NCBI GenBank assembly: GCA_963715865.1
Contig: OY970280.1
Coordinates: 1,728,001-1,792,000, forward strand
DNA length: 64,000 nucleotides
Origin: Candidatus Bathyarchaeota archaeon
Lineage (GTDB): Archaea > Thermoproteota > Bathyarchaeia > Bathyarchaeales > Bathycorpusculaceae
Reading direction: 5' to 3'
This document shows positions 3,489 through 19,262 of the stretch, in pieces. A program made the position numbers and the translations under genes. Each line of letters opens with the position of its first letter. Position 1 is the stretch's first letter. The notes beneath the pieces are model-generated. The model saw only the letters and a list, made by a program, of their open reading frames with translations. It did not search any database and was not told where the DNA came from.

Positions 3489-3562
3489 GGGCCGGTAGTT
3501 CAGCTGGTATGAACGCTTGACTTGCACTCAAGAGGTCGGGGGTTCAAATCCCCCCCGGTCCA
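3489..3562 (+). tRNA. tRNA-Ala(TGC)
   Basis: Full cloverleaf: acceptor GGGCCGG/CCGGTCC+A, anticodon arm CTTGA-CTTGCAC-TCAAG, T arm GGGGG-TTCAAAT-CCCCC. No intron and no encoded CCA. Confidence 0.95.
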
Positions 3563-3876
3563 CTTCAAAATTGTTTTCAAATTCTTGCGAAGAAGAGGTA
3601 GCAGTCGAAGCATAATAACCCGTGAAGCATTTAAGCAACCCTAAAAAAATCGACCCTGCGCGCTGTTCAGATCATTGGAGGCCAACTGGCAAGAGAATAC
3701 CGTGCTCATCGCAAAACAGCACACACGTAACCGGTGGATTTCTTACACTGCGCTACCAACGGTAAGACCAATGATAGATCTGAAGGATCAAAGAAGCGTA
3801 TATATCCTTCAACTTAGATTGCTCTGAGCTTGTTTTAAATACTTAAACGCTCCAATTAATATGTGGGGAAGGAATA

Positions 3877-4077
3877 GTGTTGGAAGTACAACATGTGTGC
3901 TTCAATGAGTTCCCCGATCAATGCGTAGGATGCCCAGAATACAGTGAAACAAGGCAAGATCAGGCAACGCAACTCATATTGCTTACAGGGATGGGGATGA
4001 TGTACCCGCCATACGCGAAAAAAATCGTCAAAGAATGCAAGCGGTATCACAAGCGCAAAGTTGAATATCTGAGGTAG
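3877..4077 (+). CDS. Small Cys-containing hypothetical protein
   Basis: 66-aa ORF with 4 Cys. Only plausible gene in the first segment. No recognised family. Confidence 0.35.
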   Translation: MLEVQHVCFNEFPDQCVGCPEYSETRQDQATQLILLTGMGMMYPPYAKKIVKECKRYHKRKVEYLR

Positions 4078-4420
4078 AAAGAAGCTCAGCGCAACCCCGT
4101 ATAAGCAACCATAGAATAGACAAAGTTGAATGCGGAAACTAAGTATCGGGGAAAAGTCTCGATTTCTATGCCACTTCTTAGATTGCGCTAAAAATAGCTA
4201 AATGAATGCTGGGTGAATTATCATATGAGTCGCACTTTTTAGAGCCGCTTTTCTTGGTTTGGATTTATCAGCGCTCGCCTCCTCTCTAGTCATAAGATTT
4301 GTCCTTGAGAATCGATTCGTAGTCTTACTTATAGAAAAGAACAGAAAAAGAAAACACAGAAAAGCTCACCACTGGCACGAGTTCAAATCTTTGTCACTCT
4401 TAGAAGATGAAAAAAACAAA

Positions 4421-4481
4421 AAATAGGGGAATTGCGGGTGACATCTCCATTGTAGGCGGGGTTCAAATCCCCCCCGGTCCA
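4421..4481 (+). repeat. att-like site R2: non-tRNA arm plus exact 24-bp tRNA-Ala 3' end
   Basis: 4458-4481 GGGGTTCAAATCCCCCCCGGTCCA is identical to 3539-3562. The preceding arm GGGGAATTGCGGGTGACATCTCCATTGTAG is nearly identical to the arm of R4. Confidence 0.9.
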
Positions 4482-4671
4482 TTGTGCGGCTTGAACCCAA
4501 CACGGTTCAAATCCCATAGAGACTAGAACTATTTTGGGTTCAGAACTGATTAGATTCAAGATGTACATTTCAAGTTCCGGGTTTTTCCACTTGTCCTAAT
4601 CGCTTGTTAAGCAAAGCTTTATTCGTTGTTCCACTCATAAATTCTGTTATCACATTCATGGAGGCGAATTC

Positions 4672-4842
4672 ATGGCAAAATGTAAAACATGCGGAACAGA
4701 AGCTGCTTCACCGAGGAAGAAATGGGTTATGGCAGGTAGAGCCGACAAAACAGGAAAGAAAACCCAGTTGGAAATTGGACTTTTCGACTGCGCAAAATGC
4801 AAAAAAACCTTCCGCGCTACCCTAAGCAAAAAGAAGATCTAA
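4672..4842 (+). CDS. Cren7-like chromatin protein with two CxxC pairs (56 aa)
   Basis: Manual translation gives MAKCKTCGTEAASPRKKWVMAGRADKTGKKTQLEIGLFDCAKCKKTFRATLSKKKI, matching the Cren7 pattern K-x-W-x-[LM]-A...IGLF...K-x-FR. GGAGG SD upstream. Missed by the ORF track. Confidence 0.75.
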   Translation: MAKCKTCGTEAASPRKKWVMAGRADKTGKKTQLEIGLFDCAKCKKTFRATLSKKKI

Positions 4843-4923
4843 GACTGCTTGAAACTGACAGCACATCAAATCACTCCGTCTTAACTTTAAGAATCCATTT
4901 TCCTTTAGGATTGCCGTCTAAAT

Positions 4924-5097
4924 CTACCCCCTGCCCTTTAACACTTTAAATTCGCCCTGTTTCAAACCCAAATTTTGCATGGCGTATTCTGTTGCTTCTT
5001 TAATCGTACAGAATCCAGCTGGTTTCTTTGCCTCGGTCTTAGTAAATCCCCATTCTGGCGGAACTAAACTGTCTATCTGCAAAACTCTTAATCTCAT
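4924..5097 (-). CDS. Small hypothetical protein (57 aa)
   Basis: Manual translation MRLRVLQIDSLVPPEWGFTKTEAKKPAGFCTIKEATEYAMQNLGLKQGEFKVLKGRG. Perfect GGAGGTGA SD 7 nt upstream. Confidence 0.5.
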   Translation of the reverse strand: MRLRVLQIDSLVPPEWGFTKTEAKKPAGFCTIKEATEYAMQNLGLKQGEFKVLKGRG

Positions 5098-5353
5098 TCC
5101 TCTCTCACCTCCTCAAGGAAAATAGCGAAATATTCTTTGACGCGACCGTCTCGTTACTTGATGTCTTCGCTCCAGCCATTATAGAATGGAAATCGCTGTT
5201 AAAGCTTGCTTATCCCCCTAAAAAGTCTCCTTCAAGCCAATTTTATGTATCAGAGAAAAATAGGGAACGCGCGGGAAGCTTCTATACACTGGCAACGTAA
5301 GGCTTTTGTGAAGGGTATTTAGGCATCCGCTACACTATAAGAAGCGATGTTTA

Positions 5354-5914
5354 ATGCCGAAGACTAAAGCCATAATAAACATTCAGAACGTTGTTGCTTC
5401 GGCCACTTTAAATCAGAAAGTTGACTTAAACGCGATTGCGAAGAGTTATCCAACCGCAGAATATCGTCCGGACCAGTTTCCCGGATTAGTGTTTAGGCTT
5501 AAGAGACCGAAGACGGCTACGTTGATTTTTGGCTCTGGTAAAATGGTTTGTACAGGAGCAAAATCGGGAAAGGAATCCCGCAGAGCAATCATGAAAGTTG
5601 TTAAAGAACTAAAAAAGAATGGAATAATCATTATTAGCAAGCCGGACTTGAAGGTTGTGAACATCGTTGCTTCTGCAAGTCTAGGCGGAAAGGTAGATTT
5701 GGAGGAGACAGTTTCCACGCTTAGAAACACGATGTATGAGCCGGAGCAGTTTCCAGGCTTGGTCTACAGGATGGACGAGCCTAAGGTGGTCATGCTGATA
5801 TTTGCAAGCGGGAGCCTTGTTTGTGCCGGCGCGAATAAAGAACAGGACGTTTATGACGCAGTGCATAAGCTTCATGAAATATTGGAGGAACAAAACCTCA
5901 TATTCTACGAATAA
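5354..5914 (+). CDS. tbp: TATA-box-binding protein (probably a paralog)
   Basis: Two TBP repeats: NVVASA...QFPGLVFR...LIFGSGKMVCTGAK and NIVASA...YEPEQFPGLVYR...LIFASG. Confidence 0.97.
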   Translation: MPKTKAIINIQNVVASATLNQKVDLNAIAKSYPTAEYRPDQFPGLVFRLKRPKTATLIFGSGKMVCTGAKSGKESRRAIMKVVKELKKNGIIIISKPDLKVVNIVASASLGGKVDLEETVSTLRNTMYEPEQFPGLVYRMDEPKVVMLIFASGSLVCAGANKEQDVYDAVHKLHEILEEQNLIFYE

Positions 5915-6055
5915 AACTTCATATGTTAATCGCCTTCGTTTGTGCATTCCTTATCGTAGTAAAGCAGAACACGCTTGTACCCGAAAACAATGGAAAGTGA
6001 ACATATGCCTGATCTAACTCATAATACTTTTAAGAGCAAATACGCGCGCAAATCG

Positions 6056-6709
6056 TTAAGCCTCCACAGCGGGTGAATCCGTTGGAGTAATTTGTGATTC
6101 GAAGTCTTCGACGTTGGTGAGGAGTCCTCTTGTTCCAATGCTTAATTGCCTTTCCCCTCTGAAGAGAGAGGCTCGAGCGTTCTCAATTCGAACTGTATCC
6201 CCCACGGAGACACAGCCTATCTGCTCATTCCACAAACAAAGTCTGATAGTTCCCGTCTCATCCCCAATCACTGCTTTAGACACGCTTGCATAGTTGCCAT
6301 ACCTAGTAATAACACGCCTTGGTTCTGCAACCTCCAAGATTTTAGCCTTCAAACTAACGTGGTTCATCCCAGACCGCACATCTCTGATGGAGCGACCCTG
6401 GGCCTTACGCCTCTTCCTAGAAAGATATCTAAGAATCGTGTCGGTTTCCAAGAATTTTCCAAGCGGATTATTTCTCTCCAACAGAAACTCTTCAGGGACC
6501 CGAAATTGCGCAAGGACTCCAACATCATTGGTCATCAAAAAGATTTTTTTTGCGTTTATCTCACCGCGGCACTCGATTGAAATGGGGCCACAGCTGGATT
6601 TCCTGTTTTCTCCAGCTTTGACCAGTGCGCTAAAAAACTCTTCAGGGTCAACTTCATGTTTTACTGAAAGAAAAGCAAGATATGGCCCCATTGACCGTTT
6701 ATGTCTCAA
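6056..6709 (-). CDS. Single-stranded DNA-binding protein (one OB fold) with ~100-aa N-terminal extension
   Basis: C-terminal half VSLKAKILEV...IGDETGTIRLCLWNEQ...VGDTVRIENA is typical of crenarchaeal-type SSB/RPA. Confidence 0.8.
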   Translation of the reverse strand: MRHKRSMGPYLAFLSVKHEVDPEEFFSALVKAGENRKSSCGPISIECRGEINAKKIFLMTNDVGVLAQFRVPEEFLLERNNPLGKFLETDTILRYLSRKRRKAQGRSIRDVRSGMNHVSLKAKILEVAEPRRVITRYGNYASVSKAVIGDETGTIRLCLWNEQIGCVSVGDTVRIENARASLFRGERQLSIGTRGLLTNVEDFESQITPTDSPAVEA

Positions 6710-7026
6710 GGTTCTTCATCCTTTTCACTTTTCATAATGCGAGATAATTATGCTCTCTCAACCAGTCTGACCCGTTTCGTCTATACCGCCAAGTGATTTC
6801 GTCTTGCTCGTCCGTCGGAGAGCATTCAGGTTTTGGCTCCAAACAAGCAAAGGGATAGGATGGCAAAGAACGCTCGAACCGTATTCGAGGCAAATGAAGT
6901 GGCGCGTCTAGATCAGAGAAAGCGACGTCGTCTTGGTTTTTCCACGGGATTTTCAATCGGACAGCAGAAGACCAAAACACGCCGCGCCTTAATGGTTACA
7001 TAGCGCTCATATTTCGCAAGGTATTC

Positions 7027-7314
7027 CTACTCTTTTGTAAGCATTATTTCAATCGTTGAAACCATCCGCGCTCTAGTTTCGCCCTCTCTCGGCGGCATCT
7101 CCTCTGTTCCTATCGCGATTTTGCTTACTTTCAGGTCTTTTAGGAAGCGGTTTCTCGCTATTTCAGCTGCGTCAACAGCTGTAGTTATTGCTTTTCCTCT
7201 GGCCTTCAAGGTTATACCTTTAGCATTGCTCGCCGATAGGCCTGTAATTATCGCTAGAACATAGTCCATTGGCATTTTACTTCCAACGAAAACAATTCCC
7301 GATTTTTCAACCAT
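7027..7314 (-). CDS. albA: Second Alba paralog
   Basis: Highly similar to 175-465, sharing FLKDLKVSKIAIGT.EMPPREGE.R.RMVSTIEI. Confidence 0.95.
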   Translation of the reverse strand: MVEKSGIVFVGSKMPMDYVLAIITGLSASNAKGITLKARGKAITTAVDAAEIARNRFLKDLKVSKIAIGTEEMPPREGETRARMVSTIEIMLTKE

Positions 7315-7361
7315 TTTTCATCACCATTTAATCATAACGCTACTCCCCTATACTACGCAAC

Positions 7362-7373
7362 CTTCCTTATAAA
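7362..7373 (-). promoter_or_regulatory. TATA-box-containing promoter motif of second alba
   Basis: Reverse complement is TTTATAAGGAAG, identical to 74-85. Confidence 0.55.
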
Positions 7374-7539
7374 GCGATTAAACAACAGAGCATCCTGAGG
7401 ATGTTTCAGTGCGGCTCCCTTATCTTAGATTCTGGTTTTAGACACGGCACGCACATTGTGGATTTGTTTGATAAGCGTGTTTTGGCTGTGTTTAAGGAAT
7501 AAAAACCATTTACACCAATTTAGCAACGCGTGGCACGCT

Positions 7540-7990
7540 TCAGTATTCTTCCTTCTTCCAGATGTTGTATGGGCACTGTCTCCAACAGTATGTGCTTGCC
7601 TTGTAAATACAATTCTCACATTCGAGCCTGTCAAACCACCGTCTACGTCTGCTCACTGGCAGCGCCCTCCATACTCTTCTATACTGCCTTCCTCATTAAG
7701 TCTTGGATTGCGCCAGTTATTCCGTCAGGATAAAATGTATTCATAACCTTCTGAACGAACCCTCTTCAGGTAGAAGCTTATAGCCTCTTTTGTACATGAA
7801 ATTGTCCGAGAAGCATTTTGCCAAACGCGAGTGCACGTATGCCTGTTCCGAAATTGGAAAAAATTGTTTCCATTCGTGGGATTAAAAGGCAGCTTTTGGC
7901 TTCGTATCTGGTTTTAATTTCCTTGGAGAAACCGTCCTTCCCAAACTTGCAAAAGAATCCGAGAACGAAATTAAAACCACTTTTAGCCAT
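7540..7990 (-). pseudogene. Fragmented hypothetical gene(s), ending in a Cys-rich peptide (CENCIYKASTYCWRQCPYNIW)
   Basis: Protein-like stretches continue across several frame changes. No family recognised. Confidence 0.3.
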
Positions 7991-8056
7991 TTAGGAACAA
8001 TCATCCGCGCTTTAACTGCAAAGTATAAAGTTAGAAACCTTGCATTTAGTAATTTA

Positions 8057-8082
8057 TTCTACATTAGTGGAATAATGTAGAA
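8057..8082. promoter_or_regulatory. Perfect 10-6-10 inverted repeat TTCTACATTA-GTGGAA-TAATGTAGAA
   Basis: Arms are exact reverse complements. Lies between divergently oriented genes. Confidence 0.6.
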
Positions 8083-8285
8083 CCAGTAAAATCCTTGGAA
8101 GATAACCATTATACAGAAGGCGAAATCATGGGCGATCACCGATGCGAGAATTGCGGGAAGGTAGAAAATTCTAGTTGAGCGCTGGGATGATATAGGAGAT
8201 GGCTTCGGCGAATCAAGAAAAGCGCGGTTCTAATTCACAAAGCGTATATCCATGATAGTTGTAATTTATGCAGAAAGGTTTCGAT

Positions 8286-8579
8286 ATGAGACGGTCCAAG
8301 CTTGAAATGTACGTGGATATCCTTAAGGTTCTTGCGTAGCGTGGTCCATTGAAGCTAACTCACATAATGTACAAGGCTAACGTGAACTGCAAAGTGCTGA
8401 AGGAATACTTAGACTTCCTAGTCGGTCACGGCTTGGTTGAAGAAAGAATTGTGGGGAAGCGAAGAGTGGTTTACGCAACTACTCAGCGCGGCGTAACGGT
8501 TCTGAAATACTTCAGAGAACTGGAACAAGTGCTTCCTATAGTGGAAGAAGCCAGAAACGGCATGTTTGTTCCTTTTTGA
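8286..8579 (+). pseudogene. Winged-helix transcriptional regulator (MRRSKLE.. type) interrupted by in-frame TAG at 8337-8339
   Basis: ATG at 8286 gives MRRSKLEMYVDILKVLA*RGPLKLTHIMYKANVN...Y.TT.RG, a continuous wHTH across the stop. Confidence 0.8.
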
Positions 8580-8673
8580 CTTCCGTCTAAGTAAAGCGTG
8601 CACGCAAAGTTGTGGCTTTTTTGTTGGCTCTTGTTTTAGGAGGATTTTTCAGTTAAGGGTTCCGCCCCCTTTT

Positions 8674-8700
8674 GGGTTCAAATCCCCCCCGGCCCCACCA
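8674..8700 (+). repeat. att-like site R3: tRNA-Ala-type 3' half ending GGCCCCA-CCA
   Basis: GGGTTCAAATCCCCCCCGGCCCCACCA. Same T arm as 3540-3558 but a different acceptor end with encoded CCA. Lacks the shared arm. Confidence 0.85.
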
Positions 8701-9124
8701 CAACAATCCAAACCCAATTCGCGGATCATATTATTTGGTGCTTTCTGAACAATTTGACCACCTTAAATTCGTATATGAACTCAAAATCAGCATCTATTTA
8801 GGTCCAGATGCTTTCTTTTTGTTTCTTGCTTTTGTCGGGAAATAATAGGGGCTTTTTCCACTGGAAATTGCACACTATTAGTTGGCGTAATCCTTTTTTC
8901 ATTCTTTTTATTGTAGCGAAATCTTTAGCCAAGAAGTTTGAGCAGACTGGCGTAAGTTTGACGGCGTCAATGGAATAATCTGAAGACGATATGTGAATCA
9001 TTTAGAGATAGTTTTCATTTCATCTTAATTATTATTTTGGGTCATGATTTCGGGGTCATAATTGTTTTATTAATTTAACGTCACAAAGGAGTAATATATT
9101 TAGGAAAGATATGGTTGGAATTAT

Positions 9125-10423
9125 ATGCGGATTGGATTCTTCGTTTGGGAGTATCCTCCTTCAATTGTTGGAGGTCTGGGCACTTACGCGGAAAACATAA
9201 CGCGTGAATATGTTTCTATGGGGCATGATGTAACCCTTTTTACGCTCAATCCCGGCAACTTAAAAACAAGAGAAGTTATAAGGGGCGTAGAAGTTCATAG
9301 ACCACTTATTTCGGATGCAAGTAATGTTTTTCCAATGTTTGTAGTGGATGACTTAAAAAAATGGGGAACAAACATCCGCATGTTCAATGACATTTTCACC
9401 TACAACATTTTGAGTGCATCAAAATTCATAAACAGCATGCTGAAAAAGGAAAACTGCAATTTCGACGTCGTTTGCGTGCACGACTGGCTAAGCAGTATAG
9501 CTGGGATTATGGTTAAGAACGAAACGAAAATCCCAGTTGCGTTTCATGTCCATAGTACAGAATGGGGAAGAAGCGGAGGGTCAGGTTCTGGAGTTGTTTC
9601 TCATTTTGAATGGGCAACAGCTGAAAAAGCAGACAGAATCTTGACTGTGAGTCATGCTATGAGGGAAGATTTAGTGAAGCACGGTTGGTCAAGTTCTAAA
9701 ATAAGCGTTGTTTGGAATGGCGTAGATAGCGAACGATACAATTTAAAGAAATGCAAGACTGAAGAGATAGAAGCTATTCGAGAAAGATACGGCATCAAAT
9801 CAGACGAAAAAATGATACTCTTTTTAGGTAGGCTAACGTGGGTGAAAGGGGTCATGAACCTCGTTCAGGCGATGCCTATGATCTTGGCTGAATATCCAAA
9901 AGCAAAACTAGTAATTTTGGGCAAAGGAGAACAACAAAATGACATCATTGAAACCGCACGTAGACTTGGAATAGCAAAAAACGTCGTTTGCAGATTTGAT
10001 TTTGTGCCAGAAAAAGATCGTATCCTACATTACGCTGCATCTGACTTGTGTATCTTTCCTTCAACATATGAACCCTTTGGCATAGTGAGCCTAGAAGCTA
10101 TGTCAATGGAAAAGCCAATAGTTGTGGGTGCCCACGGCGTGGTCGGCTTCAGAGAACAAGTCATGCCCGATGGTCCTGACAAAAATGGTGTACACGTAAA
10201 TGGGGAGAGCCCAAGCGATATCGCATGGGGGATAAAAGAAATATTGTGTGACGATAACAGGGCTAAACAATGGGGCAAAAACGGAAGAAAACGGGTTTTA
10301 CAATATTTCCAGTGGAGAAAAGTTGCAGAACAAACGTTGCAAATATACGAGCGACTCCAGCGCCCAGATGAACAAGATGAACAGGTAACTTTCGGATTAG
10401 TTGAAAAACCATTTGTCTCATAA
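9125..10423 (+). CDS. GT4 family glycosyltransferase (glycogen synthase/RfaB-like)
   Basis: WEYPP..VGGLG, HDWL, FLGRLTWVKG, PS.YEPFGIVSLEAM. Confidence 0.92.
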   Translation: MRIGFFVWEYPPSIVGGLGTYAENITREYVSMGHDVTLFTLNPGNLKTREVIRGVEVHRPLISDASNVFPMFVVDDLKKWGTNIRMFNDIFTYNILSASKFINSMLKKENCNFDVVCVHDWLSSIAGIMVKNETKIPVAFHVHSTEWGRSGGSGSGVVSHFEWATAEKADRILTVSHAMREDLVKHGWSSSKISVVWNGVDSERYNLKKCKTEEIEAIRERYGIKSDEKMILFLGRLTWVKGVMNLVQAMPMILAEYPKAKLVILGKGEQQNDIIETARRLGIAKNVVCRFDFVPEKDRILHYAASDLCIFPSTYEPFGIVSLEAMSMEKPIVVGAHGVVGFREQVMPDGPDKNGVHVNGESPSDIAWGIKEILCDDNRAKQWGKNGRKRVLQYFQWRKVAEQTLQIYERLQRPDEQDEQVTFGLVEKPFVS

Positions 10424-10846
10424 GTGTCTTCCCGTTTCTGCTTATCCAAATCAAACAAGCATGCGTGTTCACTTTTCCCTTTTCCAAGGTTGCCCCGAAC
10501 AGAAGCGCGTCTTCAATCTGAGCCCAAATTGTAACCATGACAACTCATTGTCCAACGGAACCAATTTAACATATGCAAATCCAAAGCAGAAAAAATGCAG
10601 ATTTCACGGATTTTTTCCCGAAAGGCAAAACCCCGCCCTTCCCGCCTCAACTCCAGTTGTTCCCCAAAAAAATAACTAAAATTCGAGCACTTCACGTTTT
10701 CTGCCCTACTGCACTAGATGCACAAGTTGCAAACAACCATTCCAAATCTCATAACATGGAGGAAGAATTTCTAATCCATATTTGGCATTCACAAATCTAA
10801 TTTATTTCCATAAGTTCTTAGATATGATTGATAATGGGCGATAAAA

Positions 10847-11800
10847 ATGCACAGTAGTCTTAGGCAGGAGCGCAAAACAGCGCTACAATTGGATGAAACG
10901 CCCGCTGTTGTTAAAGCAACGGCTGATACTAGAGAGTCTTTCTGCAAGATGCTTGGGGAAGCTATTGACGAGGCATTTTCTTCTCTAGGTGAACCTACAA
11001 GAAAAGCAATATACATTCATCTGAAAAACTCGTTTGGGATTGCGAAGCGCGAAATTCCGTACAGGATCAATGATTTTTCAGATGCGCTCGAGAAAATTTT
11101 TGGACCAAGCGCCAGAAACCTGGAGATTATCTGTATAAAAAACATTCAAGCCAAAGCTAGAATTGACTACAAGTGGGATTTGCCCGAATCGAGTGGGTCC
11201 GAATTGACGTTTGAAGAATACATACGCATCGTTAAGCAGAACTATAAACAGCAAGAAAGCTATCAACGAGCGGAATCAAAGAGTAGCTCCGCCGAGAAAA
11301 AACGGGTAACTCCAGTGGCTCAAGAAAAAACAGATGAAAACAAAGTTACGTTAAAGGCTGTTAACGTGATGGTCAAGAAAGTAATTACGGTAGATGAAAA
11401 AGCGTCGGTCAAAGAAGCAGCTGACACAATGAATCAGTTCGAGATAGGCTCCGTAATTACCACCAGAAAAGGGGAGCCTATAGGCATAATTACTGAGCGA
11501 GACCTTTTGAAACGCATAGTCTCCGAGGGCAGAAACGTAAAAAAGACTAGAGTTAAAGAAATTATGTCAAGTCCATTGGTCGTTATTTCACCCAACACAG
11601 ACTTAGAAGAAGCGGCACGCTTGATGTTCGAGATGAAGATAAAGAAGCTGCCAGTAACCGAACAGAACCGCTTGGTGGGCTTGGTCAGTCTAACAGACAT
11701 AGCCCGCGCTCAGCCGATGATAAAATTCCTGCAAAAACTTGCCGCGACGCAATATACGCCGAAAAGCATACAGAAAGTCTTAAATTGCTACATTGTTTAG
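10847..11800 (+). CDS. CBS-pair protein with an N-terminal archaeal helical domain (DUF3227-like)
   Basis: C-terminal tandem CBS (VMVKKVITV...GIITERD...IMSSPLV...GLVSLTD). N-terminal AIDEAFSSLGE...IP.R..DFSDALEKIFG. Confidence 0.8.
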   Translation: MHSSLRQERKTALQLDETPAVVKATADTRESFCKMLGEAIDEAFSSLGEPTRKAIYIHLKNSFGIAKREIPYRINDFSDALEKIFGPSARNLEIICIKNIQAKARIDYKWDLPESSGSELTFEEYIRIVKQNYKQQESYQRAESKSSSAEKKRVTPVAQEKTDENKVTLKAVNVMVKKVITVDEKASVKEAADTMNQFEIGSVITTRKGEPIGIITERDLLKRIVSEGRNVKKTRVKEIMSSPLVVISPNTDLEEAARLMFEMKIKKLPVTEQNRLVGLVSLTDIARAQPMIKFLQKLAATQYTPKSIQKVLNCYIV

Positions 11801-11849
11801 CGCAATGCAATTGTTAGTGCCCCAGCCCGCTGAGGAAGCGCGCGCTCTT

Positions 11850-12170
11850 CTATTGGTTCACCCTTCGCCAGCGAAGTTGAACCTGTACTCTCTTGATGTA
11901 GCCCTGTTTTTCCAAGGAAATTAGACTGCGGTGAACTGAAGTATATTCCTTTGATTTGTACTCTATGATTTTGCCAAAAATCATCTCGGCAATTTCCTTG
12001 GTTGCCATGTCAGGTTTTATCTTTAGCATTTCCAAAATTCTTTTTTGGTTTTTAGAGAGACCAGCCAAATTCTGCAGCACGCTCTTGAGAGCTTCAATTG
12101 TTTTGTCAAAATTTAAATCTTTAACGCGCACTATAACTGCAGTTCTGATGGCTAGAATATAACAAAACAT
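11850..12170 (-). CDS. Winged-helix DNA-binding protein
   Basis: LSKNQKRILEML...TKEIAEMIF...SVHRSL.SLEKQGYI. Start uncertain. Confidence 0.65.
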   Translation of the reverse strand: MFCYILAIRTAVIVRVKDLNFDKTIEALKSVLQNLAGLSKNQKRILEMLKIKPDMATKEIAEMIFGKIIEYKSKEYTSVHRSLISLEKQGYIKRVQVQLRWRRVNQ

Positions 12171-12303
12171 GAAATATATACGAAGCGCGCATGGTATTGT
12201 GCAAATCCCTTAACGAAATAAATATTTAACTTCGCGCTTGCACCTTAATTAAGGGCACCCGCTACTCGGATAAAAATTCATGCAAATCCAATAGGACCCA
12301 ACA

Positions 12304-12372
12304 AAAAAATGGGGATTTGCGGGTGACATCTCCACTGTAGACGGGGTTCAAATCTCGCCCGGTCCACTTCAA
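12304..12372 (+). repeat. att-like site R4: shared arm plus tRNA-Ala 3' half plus CTTCAA tail
   Basis: 12343-12372 matches 3539-3568 at 28/30 positions. The arm closely matches R2. Confidence 0.9.
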
Positions 12373-12467
12373 CAACACCAGTAATCTAGTAAGAATTCAT
12401 GATGTTGTCAATTTTCAAATGCGTTCCAATCCTGTAACAAGGCTTTAGTAACCGTTTATCCATAACA

Positions 12468-12698
12468 TTGTCTGGTGATGTGGTGAAATTCGGTGTTGTA
12501 GTCGAAAAAGATGAAGATGGCTATTATGTTGCGTCCGTTCCCGAGTTGCCCGGTTGCCACACCCAAGCTAAAACTCTTGATGAAGTAATGAAGAGAATTA
12601 AAGAGGCCATTCAACTTTGCTTGGAAGTCGAAGGAACGAAAGGCAAGGGACGGAACGAACTCGTGGGAGTCCAGTTTGTAGAAGTTCAAGCTGAATGA
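12468..12698 (+). CDS. hicB: HicB family antitoxin
   Basis: VEKDEDGYYVASVPELPGCHTQAKTLDE...IKEAI.L.LE. Confidence 0.92.
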   Translation: MSGDVVKFGVVVEKDEDGYYVASVPELPGCHTQAKTLDEVMKRIKEAIQLCLEVEGTKGKGRNELVGVQFVEVQAE

Positions 12699-12924
12699 GC
12701 TTAAAGCCTCAACCAGCTAAGAAAATAATTAAAGTGCTCTCCAAGTTGGGTTTTGAAGTTGTAAGAAAACGAGGCAGTCATGTTATCCTGAAGCATGCTG
12801 ATGGAAGGCTGACTGTGGTTCCAGTTCATGCAGGAGAGGAAAAGGCTCTGGGCTGCTAAATAAGATAATTAAGGACACGGGACTATCGAAAGAGGAATTC
12901 ATCAAGTTATTAGAAACTGCCTGA
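12695..12924 (+). pseudogene. hicA: HicA family toxin with a 1-nt frameshift (premature TAA at 12857-12859)
   Basis: MSLKP..AKKIIKVLSKLGFEVVRKRGSHVILKH.DGR.TVVPVH then GSGLLNKIIKDTGLSKEEF in a shifted frame. ATGA overlap with hicB. Confidence 0.88.
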
Positions 12925-12966
12925 CTGACTCAAATTCAACTTGTTACACTTTTGCATCCAGACATG

Positions 12967-13034
12967 AAAAAATTGAATCCGCGGAGGTAATCTCCGCTTG
13001 CGTGGGGGGCTCAAATCCTCCCGGTTCACTTCAA
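12967..13034 (+). repeat. att-like site R5 (degenerate arm plus tRNA-Ala 3' half plus CTTCAA tail)
   Basis: GGGGCTCAAATCCTCCCGGTTCACTTCAA, preceded by an A-tract and GCGGAGGTAATCTCCGC, which is related to the R2/R4 arm. Confidence 0.8.
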
Positions 13035-13089
13035 CATTATTTTCAACCACCCTGATAATTTTTGCTTGATACTTCTATTTTCTTCACAG

Positions 13090-14313
13090 TCAATTTTTTT
13101 GTTGTTCTAGCCAGTTTCTTGATTTCATTACCGTTTTCCCTGCAACTTTTAATGACAATGCATCGTCATAGGGGCATATTTCAACGCATCGTGCGCAAAG
13201 TATACACCTTGATTCAGTTACGTCGCCCCCTTTTTTCTCGTACACTTGTGTAGCTTGAGTTGGACAAACGCGTTTGCAAACACCGCACTTGGTGCATTTT
13301 TGTTCGTTCTTCTCCAAGCGTGTTAGGGCGATTTGTTTGAAAGGGGTGAAAGTGCTGAATAAGCCTGTTAACGCGCCTAGAGGGCAGATTCTGCACCAGA
13401 ATCGCCTATAGGCTAAAGCTAAAATTGTGAATGCAATTAAGATAGCTAAGTTTATCGAAGTAAGATAACCGCCTGTTATCCACAGCGGTCCATAGGCTAT
13501 TTGCGAGACGTATGAAAACTTCATCGAGCCTAAACCACATTCGATTAACACGCAAAGGGGCCTCATGGGACAAACTAAACAAAAAGGCTCGTTAAGGTTG
13601 CCTACAAGGCCTGCTTCGGTTCCTTCAGGTCCTCCTGGTCTAGTGCCTGGAATAAGCTGAGCGCCAAAAATGGCGTACGAGGCAAAAATAACACTAAGAA
13701 TCAAAAAAACCGCAATAATGATATACCGTGATTGTCCAAGCGCCGTGTTTGTCTTGTCGGAAAAACGAAAATGCCGCAGCCGTAGGGCTTTGCGAATTCG
13801 TGTTAACACATCCATATATAGGCCGAAAGGACACAGCCAACCGCAGAAAAATCTTCCTAAAACAACAGACGCCACAGCTACCAAGCCGAAAACTATAGCT
13901 AGCTTCTCCAAACCAGAGGTAGAGTAGAAAACCTCGTAGCCTCTTGGATAGTTCCAAAATGGGAAAATGTAAGCTTGAATTTGCCAAATTGGACAAGTAA
14001 CTGTTCGCCCATTAGGATAGTAACATGCTAAAATAGGAACAGATAAGCCATCTGGAAATTGGTTCCCAAAAAAATTAGTCCCAACTAACCGGTCGCGTGG
14101 CGAAGACCCCAAAGGCTGGAATATTGGGACGTTGAAGGGACCTAATATAAGCCCCATAAACACAGCAAAGACGGCGGCTATTTGAATAAAAAATCGAAGC
14201 GAGCTGACTTTACGGGTTTTGTTTTTGGCGAATCTAAAGATAAGATAAATTCCAACCAACACTATCAAAACGTATACAGGTAATACGATTGCACTGGGAG
14301 CCTCCCACGACAT
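13090..14313 (-). CDS. Membrane-bound 4Fe-4S protein (NapH/MauN-like polyferredoxin)
   Basis: GRFFCGWLCPFG, FCLVCP, RFWCRICPLG, and two CxxCxxCxxxCP motifs, with transmembrane helices. Confidence 0.88.
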   Translation of the reverse strand: MSWEAPSAIVLPVYVLIVLVGIYLIFRFAKNKTRKVSSLRFFIQIAAVFAVFMGLILGPFNVPIFQPLGSSPRDRLVGTNFFGNQFPDGLSVPILACYYPNGRTVTCPIWQIQAYIFPFWNYPRGYEVFYSTSGLEKLAIVFGLVAVASVVLGRFFCGWLCPFGLYMDVLTRIRKALRLRHFRFSDKTNTALGQSRYIIIAVFLILSVIFASYAIFGAQLIPGTRPGGPEGTEAGLVGNLNEPFCLVCPMRPLCVLIECGLGSMKFSYVSQIAYGPLWITGGYLTSINLAILIAFTILALAYRRFWCRICPLGALTGLFSTFTPFKQIALTRLEKNEQKCTKCGVCKRVCPTQATQVYEKKGGDVTESRCILCARCVEICPYDDALSLKVAGKTVMKSRNWLEQQKN

Positions 14314-14380
14314 CTTTGCGCTTCCTACTTTTTATTTAATGCCGAGCCTTTGCTAATTAGCCTAAAGCACTTTCACCAAC

Positions 14381-15067
14381 TTATTTTTCACCCGAATGCT
14401 CTTTGCTTTTCACTTTAATTACGATAGCGACAATGATTGTGACAGCCACTACCATTGCTATTACAATGGCTACTGAATGCTGCTGGTAGAAAGGCAAGTT
14501 TGAACTAGACAGACCATTTCCCCCAAAGTCCCAGTGTGCAATGCTTACATTGCCAGTTACACCAGTTACAACCATTGACCCATCATGCGAAATGCTCCAT
14601 CCTTCACCCTCAGCTATGAAAACATTATTGTCAACAATAACACTCCATTCAACGCTGGCGCTCAACCCACCTTGGGAGACAAAACCAAGGTTTAAAATCT
14701 GCTTACCCTGACCTTCAATCAAATATCTTAACAGTACAATCTGAAACGAGGATGTGTTGTATGTTTGGTAAGAGAAGATTGTAACGTTAGAGTTTTGAGT
14801 TGAAATCTTGAAGTTTTCAAGCGGCTGTGAGCCATTGAGGTGCAAATTTGTAAAGGTCCAAGTGTCATTTTCAAATGTTGCCTCGGAATAGGTGCCATTT
14901 ACGGCAAAACTGATGGTGCCATTATACGAGGGGATATTGAATTTGTCTGCAGGACTGAAAGTTATGTTAGTTTGCGCTTGTGTATTAGGGCAAGTCCAAG
15001 GAAAAACTAAGACAATGACAATTATGGCAATTCCAGCTGAGACTTTGTTGTATTTAATTGTTACCAA
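14381..15067 (-). CDS. Secreted/surface protein with signal peptide and C-terminal TM anchor
   Basis: Hydrophobic N-terminus ending TQA-Q, N-glycosylation sequons, C-terminal TM followed by a basic tail. Confidence 0.75.
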   Translation of the reverse strand: MVTIKYNKVSAGIAIIVIVLVFPWTCPNTQAQTNITFSPADKFNIPSYNGTISFAVNGTYSEATFENDTWTFTNLHLNGSQPLENFKISTQNSNVTIFSYQTYNTSSFQIVLLRYLIEGQGKQILNLGFVSQGGLSASVEWSVIVDNNVFIAEGEGWSISHDGSMVVTGVTGNVSIAHWDFGGNGLSSSNLPFYQQHSVAIVIAMVVAVTIIVAIVIKVKSKEHSGEK

Positions 15068-15223
15068 GCCTCACTGCCTGCATCACTATAAGTAATTATT
15101 AAGTTTGGCTATAAGACTTTTCTAGGGTTCCAGGAAAGTTGCGGTTTAGCTTTCGGTTTGCAAAGGAAAAAGGGCGGGTTTATCCGTTTTGCCTATTAAT
15201 GAGAAGCTGTATAGGAAAATGCA

Positions 15224-16042
15224 ATGAAGAAATCGTTAGTCATAGCTGTGTTTCTCATCGTTGCCATCCTTGTTCTGAGCGCTTCAATACTGGTTTTCTT
15301 GAACAGCAATAAGCCGTCAACAAACTCCTCAGCTGTAACACATTACACTTACACCGTAGTTAACACGTATCCGCATGACCCGAATGCCTTCACTGAGGGG
15401 CTCGTGTACTCGGATGGTTTTCTGTACGAGAGCACAGGACTTGACGGCGGTTCATCTTTACGCCGCGTGGACTTGACCACAGGCAATGTGCAGCAGGAGG
15501 TTATGTTGCCGACTCAGGATTTCGGCGAAGGCATAGCCATAGTCAACAACACCATAATCCAACTAACTTGGCAGTCGCATATAGGCTTCATCTACGACAA
15601 AAACACCTTTGCAGTGCTGGGAAATTTTACTTACCCCACGGAAGGCTGGGGTTTGACCTTTGACGGCAAACAGCTAATCATGAGCGACGGCTCAGACAAC
15701 CTATACTTGCTTGACCCAACAACGTTTCAGCGGACAGGACAAATCCAAGTGCATGACGGAAACACAACTGTAGTAAACATCAACGAGCTAGAATACATCA
15801 ACGGCGACGTTTACGCCAACATCTGGCAAACAAACACAATCGCCATAATCAACCCGGAAACTGGACAAGTCAAAGCTTGGATAGACCTCACAGGACTACC
15901 AGCCGAAAACAATTCAAACCCAGAAGCCGTACTCAACGGCATAGCATACGACCAAAAAAACGACAGACTTTTCGTAACAGGCAAAGACTGGCCAAACCTC
16001 TACCAAATAAAACTAACACCATTAACCGAGCCTACAGCCTAA
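15224..16042 (+). CDS. Glutaminyl-peptide cyclotransferase (plant/bacterial beta-propeller type)
   Basis: YPHDP.AFTEGL, LYESTG, FGEGI, EGWGLT, INELEYI, VLNGIAYD, LFVTGK.W. Confidence 0.93.
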   Translation: MKKSLVIAVFLIVAILVLSASILVFLNSNKPSTNSSAVTHYTYTVVNTYPHDPNAFTEGLVYSDGFLYESTGLDGGSSLRRVDLTTGNVQQEVMLPTQDFGEGIAIVNNTIIQLTWQSHIGFIYDKNTFAVLGNFTYPTEGWGLTFDGKQLIMSDGSDNLYLLDPTTFQRTGQIQVHDGNTTVVNINELEYINGDVYANIWQTNTIAIINPETGQVKAWIDLTGLPAENNSNPEAVLNGIAYDQKNDRLFVTGKDWPNLYQIKLTPLTEPTA

Positions 16043-16131
16043 ACTAATCTACTCAGTGCTCTTTATAGACCGAAAGTTTGTGTTATTACTTTTTGACGCG
16101 GATGCAAAATTTGAATCGCTTAGCCTTTTCA

Positions 16132-16712
16132 TCAATCTTGAACTAAATAATAAGATAGAACTGCTAGTGGAACTACAAGAGCGTAGGAAAACAAGGTTCC
16201 AAGCCAAACACCAAAGCTCGGATACAAATATCTCACAGCTACGCTGAAAGGAATAATCGTTAGAATGCCAGACATCACTAATGGCTTTGTCACGGCTCGC
16301 GAGAATTCCGTTCCTTTGCTCTTATTCAGTATTACTAAGGTTGAAGTGAAAACTGCTGGAAACGCGGCTGCAATGCCGCCCAGAATAGGACCACCAATTT
16401 GGCTCAAAAGCACTGAGATTAAAACAAGAAACCCTGCACCGACTCCACGCAAGACAATCTCACGAATTTTGTAGAGCCCTTTCTCCTCCCGCTACGTTTT
16501 TGAGTTTTAGCTTTTTAGTGAAAGAATAATACGTTAAAACGGAAATCGCAGTTCCACCGACCAGAGAAAGCGCAAAATCCCTCAGACCAGAAGCAACAAT
16601 TAAGCCAGAAATTGCAAACCATATAAGAAGAGAAACGGAAATGCCTCGGCTAAACCCTTTCTGGGCGAAAAAAGCGAAGAAGAAAAGATAAACATGCCAA
16701 AGGATTCAACAT
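16132..16712 (-). pseudogene. Frameshifted multi-pass membrane protein (DUF3147-like repeat)
   Basis: GGILAAFPAVFTS-type motif in the 3' ORF. The upstream hydrophobic frame stops near 16462, with a frameshift around 16470-16490. 5' limit approximate. Confidence 0.45.
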
Positions 16713-16937
16713 ACCCTTTTTGCGGAGCTAAAATCAATCACACTGAAATGCAAACATTTGGGTGTTGCCGTTCATGTGTTGAAACCAACTGGAGTTAGCT
16801 TTAACTGGAAAATTACTAAACTAATGTCCCGTTCTTTTCAAGATATGTAGTTTTTAAACCATTCTTGTACAAACAAGTTATATAGCCGCTAAACGTAGTG
16901 TGTTCTTGTGGCGTACTAACACTACGGAAGAGAAAAA

Positions 16938-17510
16938 TTGGATTCCACTATCCTTGAAATCTTAGTTATTATTCTTGGAAACGGCGCGTTGATAGCTATA
17001 ATTGGCTATTGGTTTCAATATCGACAGCAAAAATCACAAACAGACTTTGAAGCAAGAAAGGGCGCAAGCCTATATTACCAAACAATTTATGGTCATATCG
17101 TCATTCTTCTCGATTTAGCAAACAAATATTGTGACAGTCTTTCTAAAGGCAAAATCATTGCAACCGATTTTGAACAATGCAAATTTAGTCAAATGACATC
17201 GGAAGAAATCATAGAAAATTATAGAAAAGCTTACTTAGAATTTGAAGGCTATTGCATAATGACTAAGAAAAAAGGTATGGAAATATTTGTCTCCGAGAAA
17301 TTACAAAAATTATTATACTCATTTTGGAATTATTCCTGGAATTTTTATAACGATAATAAATTGTTGCAGAAGCATATAATCAACTACAGTAAGATTGCTG
17401 ACCAAACAACAGACTATATGGATAAGTTGTTCGGTTTAGAGCGAGGGGGAATGGAACTATCACTGAAAAAAGAAAAAATGGATGTAACACAAGAACTGAA
17501 AACAAAATAA
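16938..17510 (+). CDS. Hypothetical protein with N-terminal TM helix (AT-rich gene)
   Basis: 190-aa ORF, one TM followed by a helical soluble domain. Confidence 0.7.
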   Translation: MDSTILEILVIILGNGALIAIIGYWFQYRQQKSQTDFEARKGASLYYQTIYGHIVILLDLANKYCDSLSKGKIIATDFEQCKFSQMTSEEIIENYRKAYLEFEGYCIMTKKKGMEIFVSEKLQKLLYSFWNYSWNFYNDNKLLQKHIINYSKIADQTTDYMDKLFGLERGGMELSLKKEKMDVTQELKTK

Positions 17511-17521
17511 CTTTTAATAAC

Positions 17522-17764
17522 ATGATGGAAATGAGCATTCAAACTCGTTATGCAGTTACACTTTCAGGTATAGCCTTTGCCTATCTGGGCTTATTATTTT
17601 TAATCTCAAGCTTAGTTCACTTTTATTACCTTGCTCCTTTCTCAATACAAATTGACCTTTTTATAATAGTAATTGGTAGCATCATGACTTTTATTGGTCT
17701 GTTAGGTTTTCATCGTAACAGTTCAGAAATCCCTCTACCTGAAATTAGCGATGCAAAAACTTAA
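17522..17764 (+). CDS. Small 2-TM hypothetical protein
   Basis: 80-aa ORF with two hydrophobic segments. Confidence 0.6.
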   Translation: MMEMSIQTRYAVTLSGIAFAYLGLLFLISSLVHFYYLAPFSIQIDLFIIVIGSIMTFIGLLGFHRNSSEIPLPEISDAKT

Positions 17765-17959
17765 ATCCGTTTTTTGTTTAACAAGCAATTACTATGTCAA
17801 ATAAACTTAGCAAAAGAGCTAGTGCTTTCTTTGTGATAATCGGAGCTATTGTTGCAGGTTTTTCGCAACTACTGTTTTAAGCTTTAGGCTGGAGAATATA
17901 AACATACGTGGTGAGATGGCTGACAAAACGGTTGATTCAATCCTTCAAAGTTCTTCGCT

Positions 17960-18622
17960 TTGTTTTATTTTGGAACGATAAGTTTGGTTTTGTTTGCATT
18001 TTTTCTCTTAACAGTAGGTAACTTTTATGGAATTACATTTTATAGTTTTGTGATTGTAACGGGCTTATTTTTGCAAGCTTTTGGTTGGGCTTTTCTTATG
18101 ATAAAAATTCAAAAATACCATCCTTTTGTTAGAGCAAGTGATGAGGAAATCAAAAGAGAAGATGACGTTTTGTTACAAGGTGCGACATTCTCTTCTGCAA
18201 TTCTGTTTTTTTATGTTAACATTTTATTTCCAGTCTCTGTCAAATTAGCTTTTAGTTTAATCATTGTTTTCTTAACTGGTTCCTTCTACTGCTTTAGAGC
18301 TTATGCTAAAATCAAGGATAGCCCTGAGTATAGAGTTATTTCTTCGGCGATTTTTCTGTATTTAGCTGGCACGTATGTTTTTATGCTATTGTTTTTATTT
18401 ATTCCGAATTTTTTCCCGATTATTTTCCACTGGCACCCAGCGATACAAATTCTAATTTTAGAGCTTTTGCTTGCAATTCCGCTTTCTGCGTTTGCAGTAT
18501 CTTTATTGTGTTTTCCAAGACGATATGGATATTTCCCAAGAATACGTTGGATTAGAGGAGGTCACTTTCCAAAGCTAGAAGTAACTAATATCTTTGACGA
18601 AATAAATGCTGACTGCATGTAA
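17960..18622 (+). CDS. Multi-pass membrane hypothetical protein (AT-rich gene)
   Basis: 220-aa ORF with about 6 hydrophobic segments. Confidence 0.65.
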   Translation: MFYFGTISLVLFAFFLLTVGNFYGITFYSFVIVTGLFLQAFGWAFLMIKIQKYHPFVRASDEEIKREDDVLLQGATFSSAILFFYVNILFPVSVKLAFSLIIVFLTGSFYCFRAYAKIKDSPEYRVISSAIFLYLAGTYVFMLLFLFIPNFFPIIFHWHPAIQILILELLLAIPLSAFAVSLLCFPRRYGYFPRIRWIRGGHFPKLEVTNIFDEINADCM

Positions 18623-18709
18623 GTTACTTCAAACGACTTTCAAGTCATGGCAAAAACTTAAAACTGGAAAGCGTAGACATAGCGTAAAACAACCAAAAAA
18701 ATCGAGTTT

Positions 18710-18760
18710 GCGATTTAATAGTTAAAATTACAAACTCTCTAAAACTAAGCGATTTAATAG
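18710..18760 (+). repeat. 12-bp direct repeat GCGATTTAATAG x2
   Basis: Exact copies at 18710-18721 and 18749-18760, upstream of 18816. Confidence 0.7.
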
Positions 18761-18815
18761 GTTATTCTATATATAATGGTTGTTATAGTCTCTTGGAAGC
18801 ATAATTACCGTTAAT

Positions 18816-19262
18816 TTGGGGGAGAATAGGTTGGATGAAGTATTAGACATGTTAGATAAAACTGCAAAGCGAATACAGAAAGTTGTTGACGAAACAAAAG
18901 AAGCAACTTGGAAACAATCAGCCCTATACGAGCAAACCATGCAATCACCCGAAGCTTCTCAAGAGCAAAAAATCAAGGCGTTTATCAAGAAAACCCGTTA
19001 TTTAGACCAACTTGAAGCCTTAAACTCCCAGCTTAGTTTACTATATACTCTTCAGATATTTGCGTTTAAAGTTAAAGTGCTTGAGGTAACAGTTGGAAAC
19101 ATCAACGAACAACTTGCAAAGTCTGGGGTTCTCCTCAAAACGGCAGAATTAGAGAGCATAAAGACGAATATTGATTCGCTCAAAATCTTAATTGAAGCGC
19201 AGTATGAATCCATGAAGGAAATCCGAGAGAGCCAAAACAAAACCTTAGACTACATTCATTAG
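18816..19262 (+). CDS. Conserved-looking coiled-coil hypothetical protein
   Basis: 148-aa helical ORF with heptad character. Confidence 0.75.
   Translation: MGENRLDEVLDMLDKTAKRIQKVVDETKEATWKQSALYEQTMQSPEASQEQKIKAFIKKTRYLDQLEALNSQLSLLYTLQIFAFKVKVLEVTVGNINEQLAKSGVLLKTAELESIKTNIDSLKILIEAQYESMKEIRESQNKTLDYIH

Follow-up and report, generated by a model that had tools for sequence, protein, structure and literature searches.

Genes clustered downstream of tRNA-Ala(TGC)

The window analysed in this study is a 64,000-nucleotide (nt) stretch from the genome of a Candidatus Bathyarchaeota archaeon (GenBank assembly GCA_963715865.1, contig OY970280.1, positions 1,728,001 to 1,792,000), here numbered G000:C1:1728001-1792000, with G000 denoting this genome. 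Downstream of a tRNA-Ala(TGC) gene it contains a segment of about 4.2 kb (window positions 4482-8672), located between two repeats named R2 and R3, in which genes for chromatin and transcription proteins are clustered. We refer to this segment as the kit and mark accessory gene copies with a prime. From left to right, it encodes a Cren7 homolog (Cren7', 4672-4842, +), a conserved open reading frame (ORF) of 57 aa (orf4924, 4924-5097, -), an accessory paralog of the TATA-binding protein (TBP', 5354-5914, +), a two-domain protein with an SSB-type OB fold (SSB', 6056-6709, -), an accessory Alba paralog (Alba2, 7027-7314, -), a 70-aa ORF (orf7778, 7778-7990, -) and a winged helix-turn-helix (wHTH) protein (8286-8579, +). 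The five DNA-binding genes that a first-pass annotation, made from the sequence alone, had named as Cren7-like, TBP, OB-fold SSB, Alba and wHTH are all present. In the comparisons below, G037 is the closest relative (flank protein 96% identical), and strain M refers to two overlapping contigs from a peat metagenome (L086/L087).

The 56-aa Cren7' has four cysteines (CxxC...CxxC) and is predicted to form a Zn-ribbon. A structural model built from ten homologs had a pLDDT of 84, and its ten best Foldseek matches in the PDB were all Cren7 (TM 0.57-0.65, 33-40% identity, E 0.16-0.5), of which the best were Cren7-DNA complexes. A Cren7 chain was also at the top in VIA-align, with a modest Z of 4.6 that was tied with an unrelated chain, and a profile search against PDB sequences recovered Cren7 at E 0.11-1.1. 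Since Pfam gave the protein no family above noise, with two weak Zn-ribbon families (E up to 0.1) listed, the Pfam Cren7 model did not register. Cysteine-bearing Cren7 orthologs have been described in Bathyarchaeota (Kaur et al., 2018, PMC5906684), and Cren7' is of the same size as these, with its four cysteines at the described turn positions. On the modelled structure, the assignment as a Cren7 homolog holds. Unlike the core Cren7, it is a third, accessory copy, for which DNA binding is putative.

The TBP' protein matched PF00352 over both repeats (7e-62; 205.7 bits in two stretches), and both QFPGL(V/I)(F/Y)R DNA-contact motifs are legible in the translation; its score against the NCBIfam equivalog was 245.7, which is under the cut-off of 270. 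Alba2 scored above the cut-offs of PF01918 (3e-14; 52.8 as compared to 25), NF003088 (97.6 as compared to 90) and TIGR00285 (93.1 as compared to 88.25), and its gene adjoins SSB' in five other genomes. In SSB', the OB fold (residues 105-204; PF21473, 1e-10) was similar to the Sulfolobus SSB (Foldseek 7e-07, root mean square deviation 1.8 Å, 35% identity), and it is preceded by an extra N-terminal alpha/beta domain of 100 aa, which was confidently modelled. No family could be assigned to this domain, the Foldseek list being filled by OB folds. With NCBIfam SSB scores of 58-87, far under the cut-offs of 176-235, and with the extra domain, we rejected the identification of SSB' as a canonical crenarchaeal-type SSB; the canonical one is a separate gene of 181 aa at G000 753461.

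The small ORFs, which had been listed as unknowns, fall into two groups. The first, orf4924, is divergently oriented to TBP' and is conserved beside it with 89-95% aa identity in L076, L088-L090, L093 and L094; it belongs to the kit. It had no match in Pfam, NCBIfam or PHROG and no paralog in G000, and Atlas look-ups with orf4924 and with the N-terminal domain of SSB' were below 0.9 and gave no lead. The second, orf7778, is of doubtful status, with no family match in Pfam or PHROG, and, strain M apart, positions 7459-8280 were not found beside kit genes in any other locus examined.

The wHTH gene (HTH_45) had been described as encoding a regulator. While the fold stands, the protein belongs, from its family scores, to the Sso10a family of chromatin proteins and is not a generic regulator, and its gene is broken in G000. 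A TAG at codon 18 (8337-8339) leaves only 8349-8579 open, and the remaining ORF scored 45.8 against NF053610, which has a cut-off of 60. The intact version in strain M has CAG (Gln) at this codon and scored 62.8, and paralogs have His at this position. Pyrrolysine or another recoding of the TAG was rejected given the Gln and His residues in the intact copies; the TAG is an ordinary stop in G000, since TAG terminates 228 of 1104 long ORFs.

Bounding repeats and array structure

The target tRNA-Ala(TGC) gene is located at 3489-3563 on the + strand (ARAGORN; Rfam tRNA, 70.7 bits), and synteny with all relatives examined ends at its last base (3564/3565). A repeat search demonstrated that its last 24 nt (R1, 3539-3562) are repeated at 4458-4481 (24/24), 8673-8696 (21/24) and 12343-12366 (22/24), which amounts to 4 matches as compared to 0 expected from 100 shuffles. 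The repeats for which the segment had been considered to be bounded by attachment (att) sites are hence real. All features of the array described here are given on the + strand.

The left boundary of the kit, R2 (4415-4481), is an attR-type scar in which a 43-nt motif, the P-arm motif, is followed by the 24-nt copy of the tRNA-Ala 3' end. A scar of the same type with a tRNA-Ala-like core, R4, is located at 12300-12366, and R2 and R4 terminate a 67-nt repeat (4415-4481 and 12300-12366), of which the copies are 89.6% identical. The right boundary of the kit, R3 (8673-8696), is a hybrid att site, in which the original right att of the kit contributed the left half and the next element the right half (CCCCACCA...); the right att of the kit matches the tRNA-Ala 3' end at 23/24 positions in strain M, as compared to 21/24 for R3 in G000. 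A degenerate scar of the same family, R5 (12962-13034; tail GGCTCAAATCCTCCCGGTTCACTTCAAC), was detected with nhmmer at E 2.6e-05. That the 67-nt repeat encodes an RNA (the 3' half of a split tRNA, a C/D box RNA or another non-coding RNA) was considered and rejected, as it had no Rfam match, its T-stems are imperfect and its tails have decayed differently copy by copy.

On the left side of the kit lies E1 (3564-4457), a 0.9-kb stump of an older integrated element that includes orf3877 (3877-4077). Positions 3743-4481 align at 87% with the right terminus of a far larger G037 element, which starts with a 432-aa recombinase beside tRNA-Ala. On the right side lies a second insertion, E2 (8697-12342), with Pfam-identified genes for a GT4 glycosyltransferase (9125-10423, +), a CBS-domain protein (10847-11800, +) and a wHTH protein (11850-12170, -), all three with paralogs at 55-75% elsewhere in G000. 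Both E1 and E2 in G000 are remnants without an integrase, and the G037 site holds an intact element that bears one.

A few further observations were made on the surroundings. Directly to the right of R2, positions 4491-4542 contain more T-loop-like fragments (CGGTTCAAATCCC) as well as an inverted repeat of 22 nt, which may be older att debris at the left end of the kit; the homology of strain M to the window starts within this fragment-rich region, at 4498. The conserved flank directly to the right of R4, the last strong att scar, carries a toxin-antitoxin pair, HicB (12468-12698) and HicA (12695-12859), which has the same position in G037 and strain M (12468-12859 in the window). The G+C content is 0.33-0.35 at 16500-19000 as compared to 0.41-0.46 on both sides, and this region may be another foreign segment.

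Three states of the site in relatives

We compared the site in G000 to those in G037 and strain M. In G037 (L052), window positions 3743-4481 and 12304-16043 abut via one 67-nt copy and 4482-12303 are absent. In strain M, window 4498-8706 (98.4%) is joined to 12344-16043 (95.4%) through a single att, TTTTGGGTTCAAATCCCCCCCGGTCCACTTCAAC, in the place of R3...R4; E2 is absent, with window position 8706 joined to 12344, and the junction alignment shows this att to be the left side of R3 fused to the right side of R4. In G000, both the kit and E2 are present, with R3 between them. Because the strain M site combines the left side of R3 with the right side of R4, 8697-12342 is a second, later element that was inserted in the right att of the kit. 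The G037 site had first pointed to R2-R4 as the sole unit, an interpretation that was abandoned when strain M resolved two nested units.

The site thus occurs in three states, empty in G037, with the kit only in strain M and with the kit and E2 in G000, and these states differ exactly at the att cores. The segment between R2 and R3 is a discrete, accessory and repeat-bounded insertion, next to which E2 was later inserted, and the suggestion that it is accessory was borne out by its absence from the G037 site and its presence without E2 in strain M.

Extra copies of core-type genes

No DNA-binding gene of the kit is the sole copy in G000, which has four TBP genes, three Cren7-like genes, four Alba genes and six genes for SSB-like OB folds. 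Such a copy count had been proposed as a check of the accessory nature of the segment, and it identifies the kit genes as extra paralogs; sole copies at a syntenic locus, the arrangement that had been named as speaking against an accessory module, was not what we found. The genes between R2 and R4 have paralogs elsewhere in G000 at 43-80% identity; those of SSB' are 43% identical. The core Cren7 and TBP-A genes of G000 form a pair at 1613333/1614385, and in all ten same-genus genomes examined, G000 included, the core Zn-ribbon Cren7 gene is located 0.3-2.4 kb upstream of TBP-A on the same strand (L039-L049). The kit copies are 66% (Cren7') and 78% (TBP') identical to these core copies.

In a sample of 81 genomes from the genus, TBP' orthologs, defined by at least 86% identity, were present in seven, and SSB' in three. 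In the TBP tree, TBP' clusters with copies from G031 and G037 (support 94/92) in a clade with long branches that falls outside the tight TBP-A clade of the genus. The kit genes are accessory, patchily distributed extra paralogs.

Two other TBP-related genes were observed. A very divergent TBP-fold gene, 33% identical to TBP' (PF00352, 77 and 67 bits), is located at G000:C1:557083-557646 (L007/L008) between HsdS and HsdM of a type I restriction-modification operon. A TBP pseudogene (77% identity), disrupted by one TGA and a break in the frame, was found at G032:C13:3735-4120 (L070/L075), on the same contig as the tRNA-Ala locus of G032 and about 70 kb apart from it.

Recent transfer and relaxed selection

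The synonymous divergence (dS) of kit genes was compared to that of core genes. Between G000 and G031, dS was 0.11 for TBP' as compared to 2.58 for TBP-A. For G000 and G051, the values were 0.105 for TBP' and 0.34 for Alba2, with 0.78 for RpoB, and for G000 and G043 they were 0.143 and 0.36, with 0.97 for RpoB. Likewise, SSB' had a dS of 0.225 between G000 and G018, as compared to 0.72 for a flank gene. For TBP', Alba2 and SSB', dS was thus 2- to 20-fold under that of core genes in four genome pairs. The relationship is reversed in the closest pair, G000 and G037, with 0.21 for TBP' and 0.063 for TBP-A; the TBP' gene of G037 resides on a different contig, among toxin-antitoxin genes. This dS pattern, including the reversal in the closest pair, is hard to reconcile with vertical descent. 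By the measure of synonymous divergence, kit genes are shown to have been recently transferred between species of this genus. On the question of whether the copies are in-paralogs or xenologs, which the first-pass annotation had raised, the low dS points to a recent movement between species.

The ratios of non-synonymous to synonymous divergence (dN/dS) were 0.33-0.56 for TBP', 0.26-0.35 for SSB' and 0.10-0.22 for Alba2, as compared to 0.02-0.05 for core genes across species. With ratios above the core values and below 1, purifying selection on the kit genes is relaxed but ongoing.

A putative integration motif and a divergent recombinase family

The 43-nt P-arm motif, AAAAAGAGGG..TTGCGGGTGAYATCTCCAC, which contains the near-palindrome GGNGAYATCNCC, occurs in about 14-20 dispersed copies in G000, of which those in the window are located at 4415-4457, 12300-12342 and approximately 12962-13010. 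It marks the distal end of integrated elements and may therefore be an arm site for a recombinase or excisionase. Scars that consist of the motif and a tRNA tail were found downstream of the matching tRNA genes at four loci (Cys, Leu and Ala, with a weaker case at Gly); the tails match the nearest upstream tRNA at 21/23 (Cys), 24/26 (Leu) and about 17-18/22 (Gly) positions, and a match was also obtained for Ala. At the tRNA-Gly locus, an ORF of 435 aa is located directly 3' of the tRNA gene and the motif 9.7 kb beyond, and at the tRNA-Pro locus the equivalent ORF of 429 aa scored above the Phage_integrase threshold. Both are 66-68% identical to the 432-aa ORF directly 3' of tRNA-Ala in G037. 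Since the tails match the upstream tRNAs and the recombinase ORFs adjoin tRNA genes, we interpret the combination of motif and tRNA tail as an attR scar left by tRNA-integrating elements, which belong to a family that has a divergent tyrosine recombinase.

The element at tRNA-Pro(CGG) (G000:C1:226487-231502), with its 429-aa divergent tyrosine recombinase directly 3' of the tRNA gene, also contains a divergent TFB gene about 3 kb further in, which is a further basal transcription factor on mobile DNA in G000.

Larger islands with related gene sets

The linkage of the kit genes is repeated in at least 10 other contigs, with their order shuffled. In L088 and L090 the order is Cren7'-Vps4'-o18686-orf4924-TBP'-SSB', and L093 and L094 contain TBP'-Cdc48', with RpoB next to these in L093. 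The island in G038 contains genes for TFB, a glycosyltransferase, Alba2, SSB', a Zn ribbon, a second RpoB, Cdc48', TBP' and Vps4', and is located beside insertion sequence (IS) elements and att scars; gene sets similar to it were identified in G051, G061 and G043. As compared to the other copies, the kit in G000 is without the 2.6-kb Vps4'/o18686 piece, the junction being at 4868, and it resembles a shortened, non-autonomous part of a larger island. It had been proposed to look for the same gene set near tRNA genes in other genomes; the set does recur and tRNA-Val(CAC) is near the islands of G038 and G051, whereas no clean att bounds were seen there.

Two RpoB genes each are present in G038 and G043, both on one contig in G038. 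The second, full-length copies (1123 aa) are encoded in the islands at L076 11519-14890 (G038) and L084 14139-17507 (G043), where they adjoin Cdc48', TBP' and Alba2. The dN/dS of 0.03-0.05 indicates strong purifying selection on the island RpoB, and its dS to the core copies is 0.7-1.5. The idea that it represents a distinct and recently shared lineage was not supported, because dS between the islands is 0.76 and hence near the core values.

Origin of the kit

We consider it probable that 4482-8672 is a non-autonomous integrated island, akin to the cis-mobilizable elements (CIMEs) of bacteria, which resides in a tandem array of scars 3' of tRNA-Ala(TGC) and whose cargo of host-type DNA-binding paralogs circulates horizontally between the species of this Bathyarchaeia genus of peat and soil. 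Its insertion would have been catalysed in trans by the divergent tyrosine recombinase family of about 430 aa, members of which adjoin tRNA genes in G000 and tRNA-Ala in G037. The kit proteins, if made, would allow chromatin to be packaged in a variant way and a subset of promoters to be served by an alternative TBP, the latter role being modelled on proposals for the multiplicity of TBP and TFB in haloarchaea. The roles suggested in the first-pass annotation, namely a remodelling of chromatin and promoter choice in a stress or dormancy program or in a takeover of the host, are likewise putative. The kit in G000 is of reduced form, being without the Vps4'/o18686 piece and having its Sso10a gene knocked out. 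An RNA run was set aside as evidence of expression, with 5% of sampled words and with contigs that come from relatives, as they are mostly 90-95% alike; no joints of an excised, circular form were seen among these contigs.

Several observations weigh against this interpretation. No integrase, replication, conjugation or virion gene was found in the kit with Pfam, NCBIfam, PF00589 and PHROG, and any mobility of its own is thus putative; the kit proteins have no recombinase domain in Pfam or NCBIfam, and a PF00589 search of the genome gave no integrase or recombinase in the region of the window. Because it has no recombinase or replication gene, we regard the kit as a passive remnant in G000 and not as an active element. 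Its right boundary, R3, has no P-arm motif, the mark of the integrase-bearing elements found locally, and the left junction in strain M is an IS element and not an att site. Around the fuller islands, neither clean boundaries nor a resident recombinase were seen in the stretches examined for att bounds, tRNAs and integrases, which contained only an integrase fragment in G043 and, near the islands of G038 and G051, scars and tRNA-Val(CAC). The low dS could in principle result from gene conversion or codon constraints instead of transfer. Finally, the evidence for a putative effect of the kit on chromatin or promoters consists of intact frames and a dN/dS below 1, and one of the six kit genes is broken in G000.

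The position in a tRNA integration array, the raised dN/dS and the divergent TFB carried by other integrated elements of G000 would also be expected if the kit were the remnant of a provirus or an integrated plasmid, in which the DNA-binding genes served the element itself in packaging, transcription or host takeover, and the Vps4', Cdc48' and second RpoB of the fuller islands recall large mobile elements that copy host genes. Yet neither the kit nor the 20-60 kb inspected around related islands showed a gene for a capsid, a terminase, a replication initiator or conjugation, and the related copies examined are parts of larger contigs (0.95-1.5 Mb in some cases), with genes of ordinary cellular type next to them. 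Pattern scans of IMG/VR for TBP' and SSB', which reach close relatives only, were empty, and PHROG gave no match for five of six kit proteins (orf7778 counted), with the wHTH protein matching only families of regulators or of unknown function. We therefore regard a viral or plasmid origin as unlikely.

Old duplications within the genus, followed by vertical descent and many losses, could have produced ordinary host paralogs, with the repeats being unrelated scars and the differences between genomes being deletions between repeats. The kit genes do have paralogs of equal G+C in the same genome, no mobility gene resides within the kit, recombination between the 67-nt R2 and R4 could remove the segment, and the related islands elsewhere are without clear att bounds. 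This scenario conflicts, however, with the kit dS, which falls so far under the core values in four pairs and rises above them in the closest pair, with the placement of TBP' on another contig in toxin-antitoxin surroundings in G037, and with the three site states that differ exactly at the att cores, and it appears unlikely. The chance that the segment was misjoined during assembly or binning is negligible, for even though the genome is a metagenome-assembled one and the region repeat-rich, the genome consists of one 2.35-Mb contig, independent metagenome contigs contain the same kit with the same right junction at 98%, and the flanks can be aligned with several relatives as far as the att cores.

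A broader proposal starts from the fuller islands. The kit would then be a fragment of an undescribed class of large mobile islands in peat and soil Bathyarchaeia, with a parallel gene set for information processing and cell biology (TBP', TFB, a second RpoB, Cren7', Alba2, Sso10a, SSB', Cdc48' and Vps4'), through which a recipient cell could be switched to another state of transcription and chromatin; we hold this to be unlikely.

Comparison to known systems and implications

CIMEs and their tandem accretion at bacterial tRNA att sites have been reviewed (PMC5704250) and are catalogued in ICEberg 2.0 (PMC6323972). Like the bacterial CIMEs, the kit is flanked by att-type direct repeats from the 3' end of the target gene, encodes neither a recombinase nor transfer functions itself, and forms a tandem array with the remains of integrase-bearing elements at one site, where the units of the array are independently present or absent among relatives. 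It differs from them in its archaeal host, in the divergent tyrosine recombinase family of about 430 aa and in its cargo, which is informational (TBP, chromatin proteins, SSB-like) rather than related to resistance or metabolism; its mobilization in cis is putative.

Among archaea, tRNA-gene integrative elements with an intact, non-partitioning tyrosine integrase are of the pNOB8 type. As in such elements, integration has occurred in the 3' part of a tRNA gene, the displaced 3' end has been left as a scar and several generations of scars are found at one hot spot. Unlike these elements, the kit has no int gene, and unlike the local element family, its right end has no P-arm motif.

In Halobacterium NRC-1, multiple TBP and TFB genes are present, several of them on the pNRC replicons, and promoter selection by alternative TBP-TFB pairs has been proposed (PMC1447603). 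The kit resembles this system in that extra genes for general transcription factors are located on accessory, potentially mobile DNA. Unlike in Halobacterium, TBP' resides in a small chromosomal island and is linked to chromatin proteins, not to TFB, and the dS values add a recent transfer of TBP' between species. What is new relative to the CIMEs and to the haloarchaeal TBP and TFB genes is a small integrative island in which chromatin proteins and a TBP are linked and for which recent transfer can be measured.

Genes for chromatin proteins and general transcription factors are commonly regarded as a stable part of the core genome, and as a rule informational genes are rarely transferred. Here, linked chromatin and transcription genes of core type behave as accessory, recently exchanged DNA at a tRNA hot spot, and the larger versions in sister genomes include even a second RNA polymerase B subunit. 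The site itself, with its empty, kit-only and kit-plus-E2 states, provides a textbook-quality reconstruction of nested integrations in Bathyarchaeia. If the class of large islands exists, it would run against the rule that informational genes seldom move. With the kit, the extent to which informational genes are exchangeable can be put to a concrete test, and if its extra TBP and chromatin proteins are active, promoter recognition and DNA packaging would be horizontally acquired traits in an uncultured and globally abundant class of archaea.

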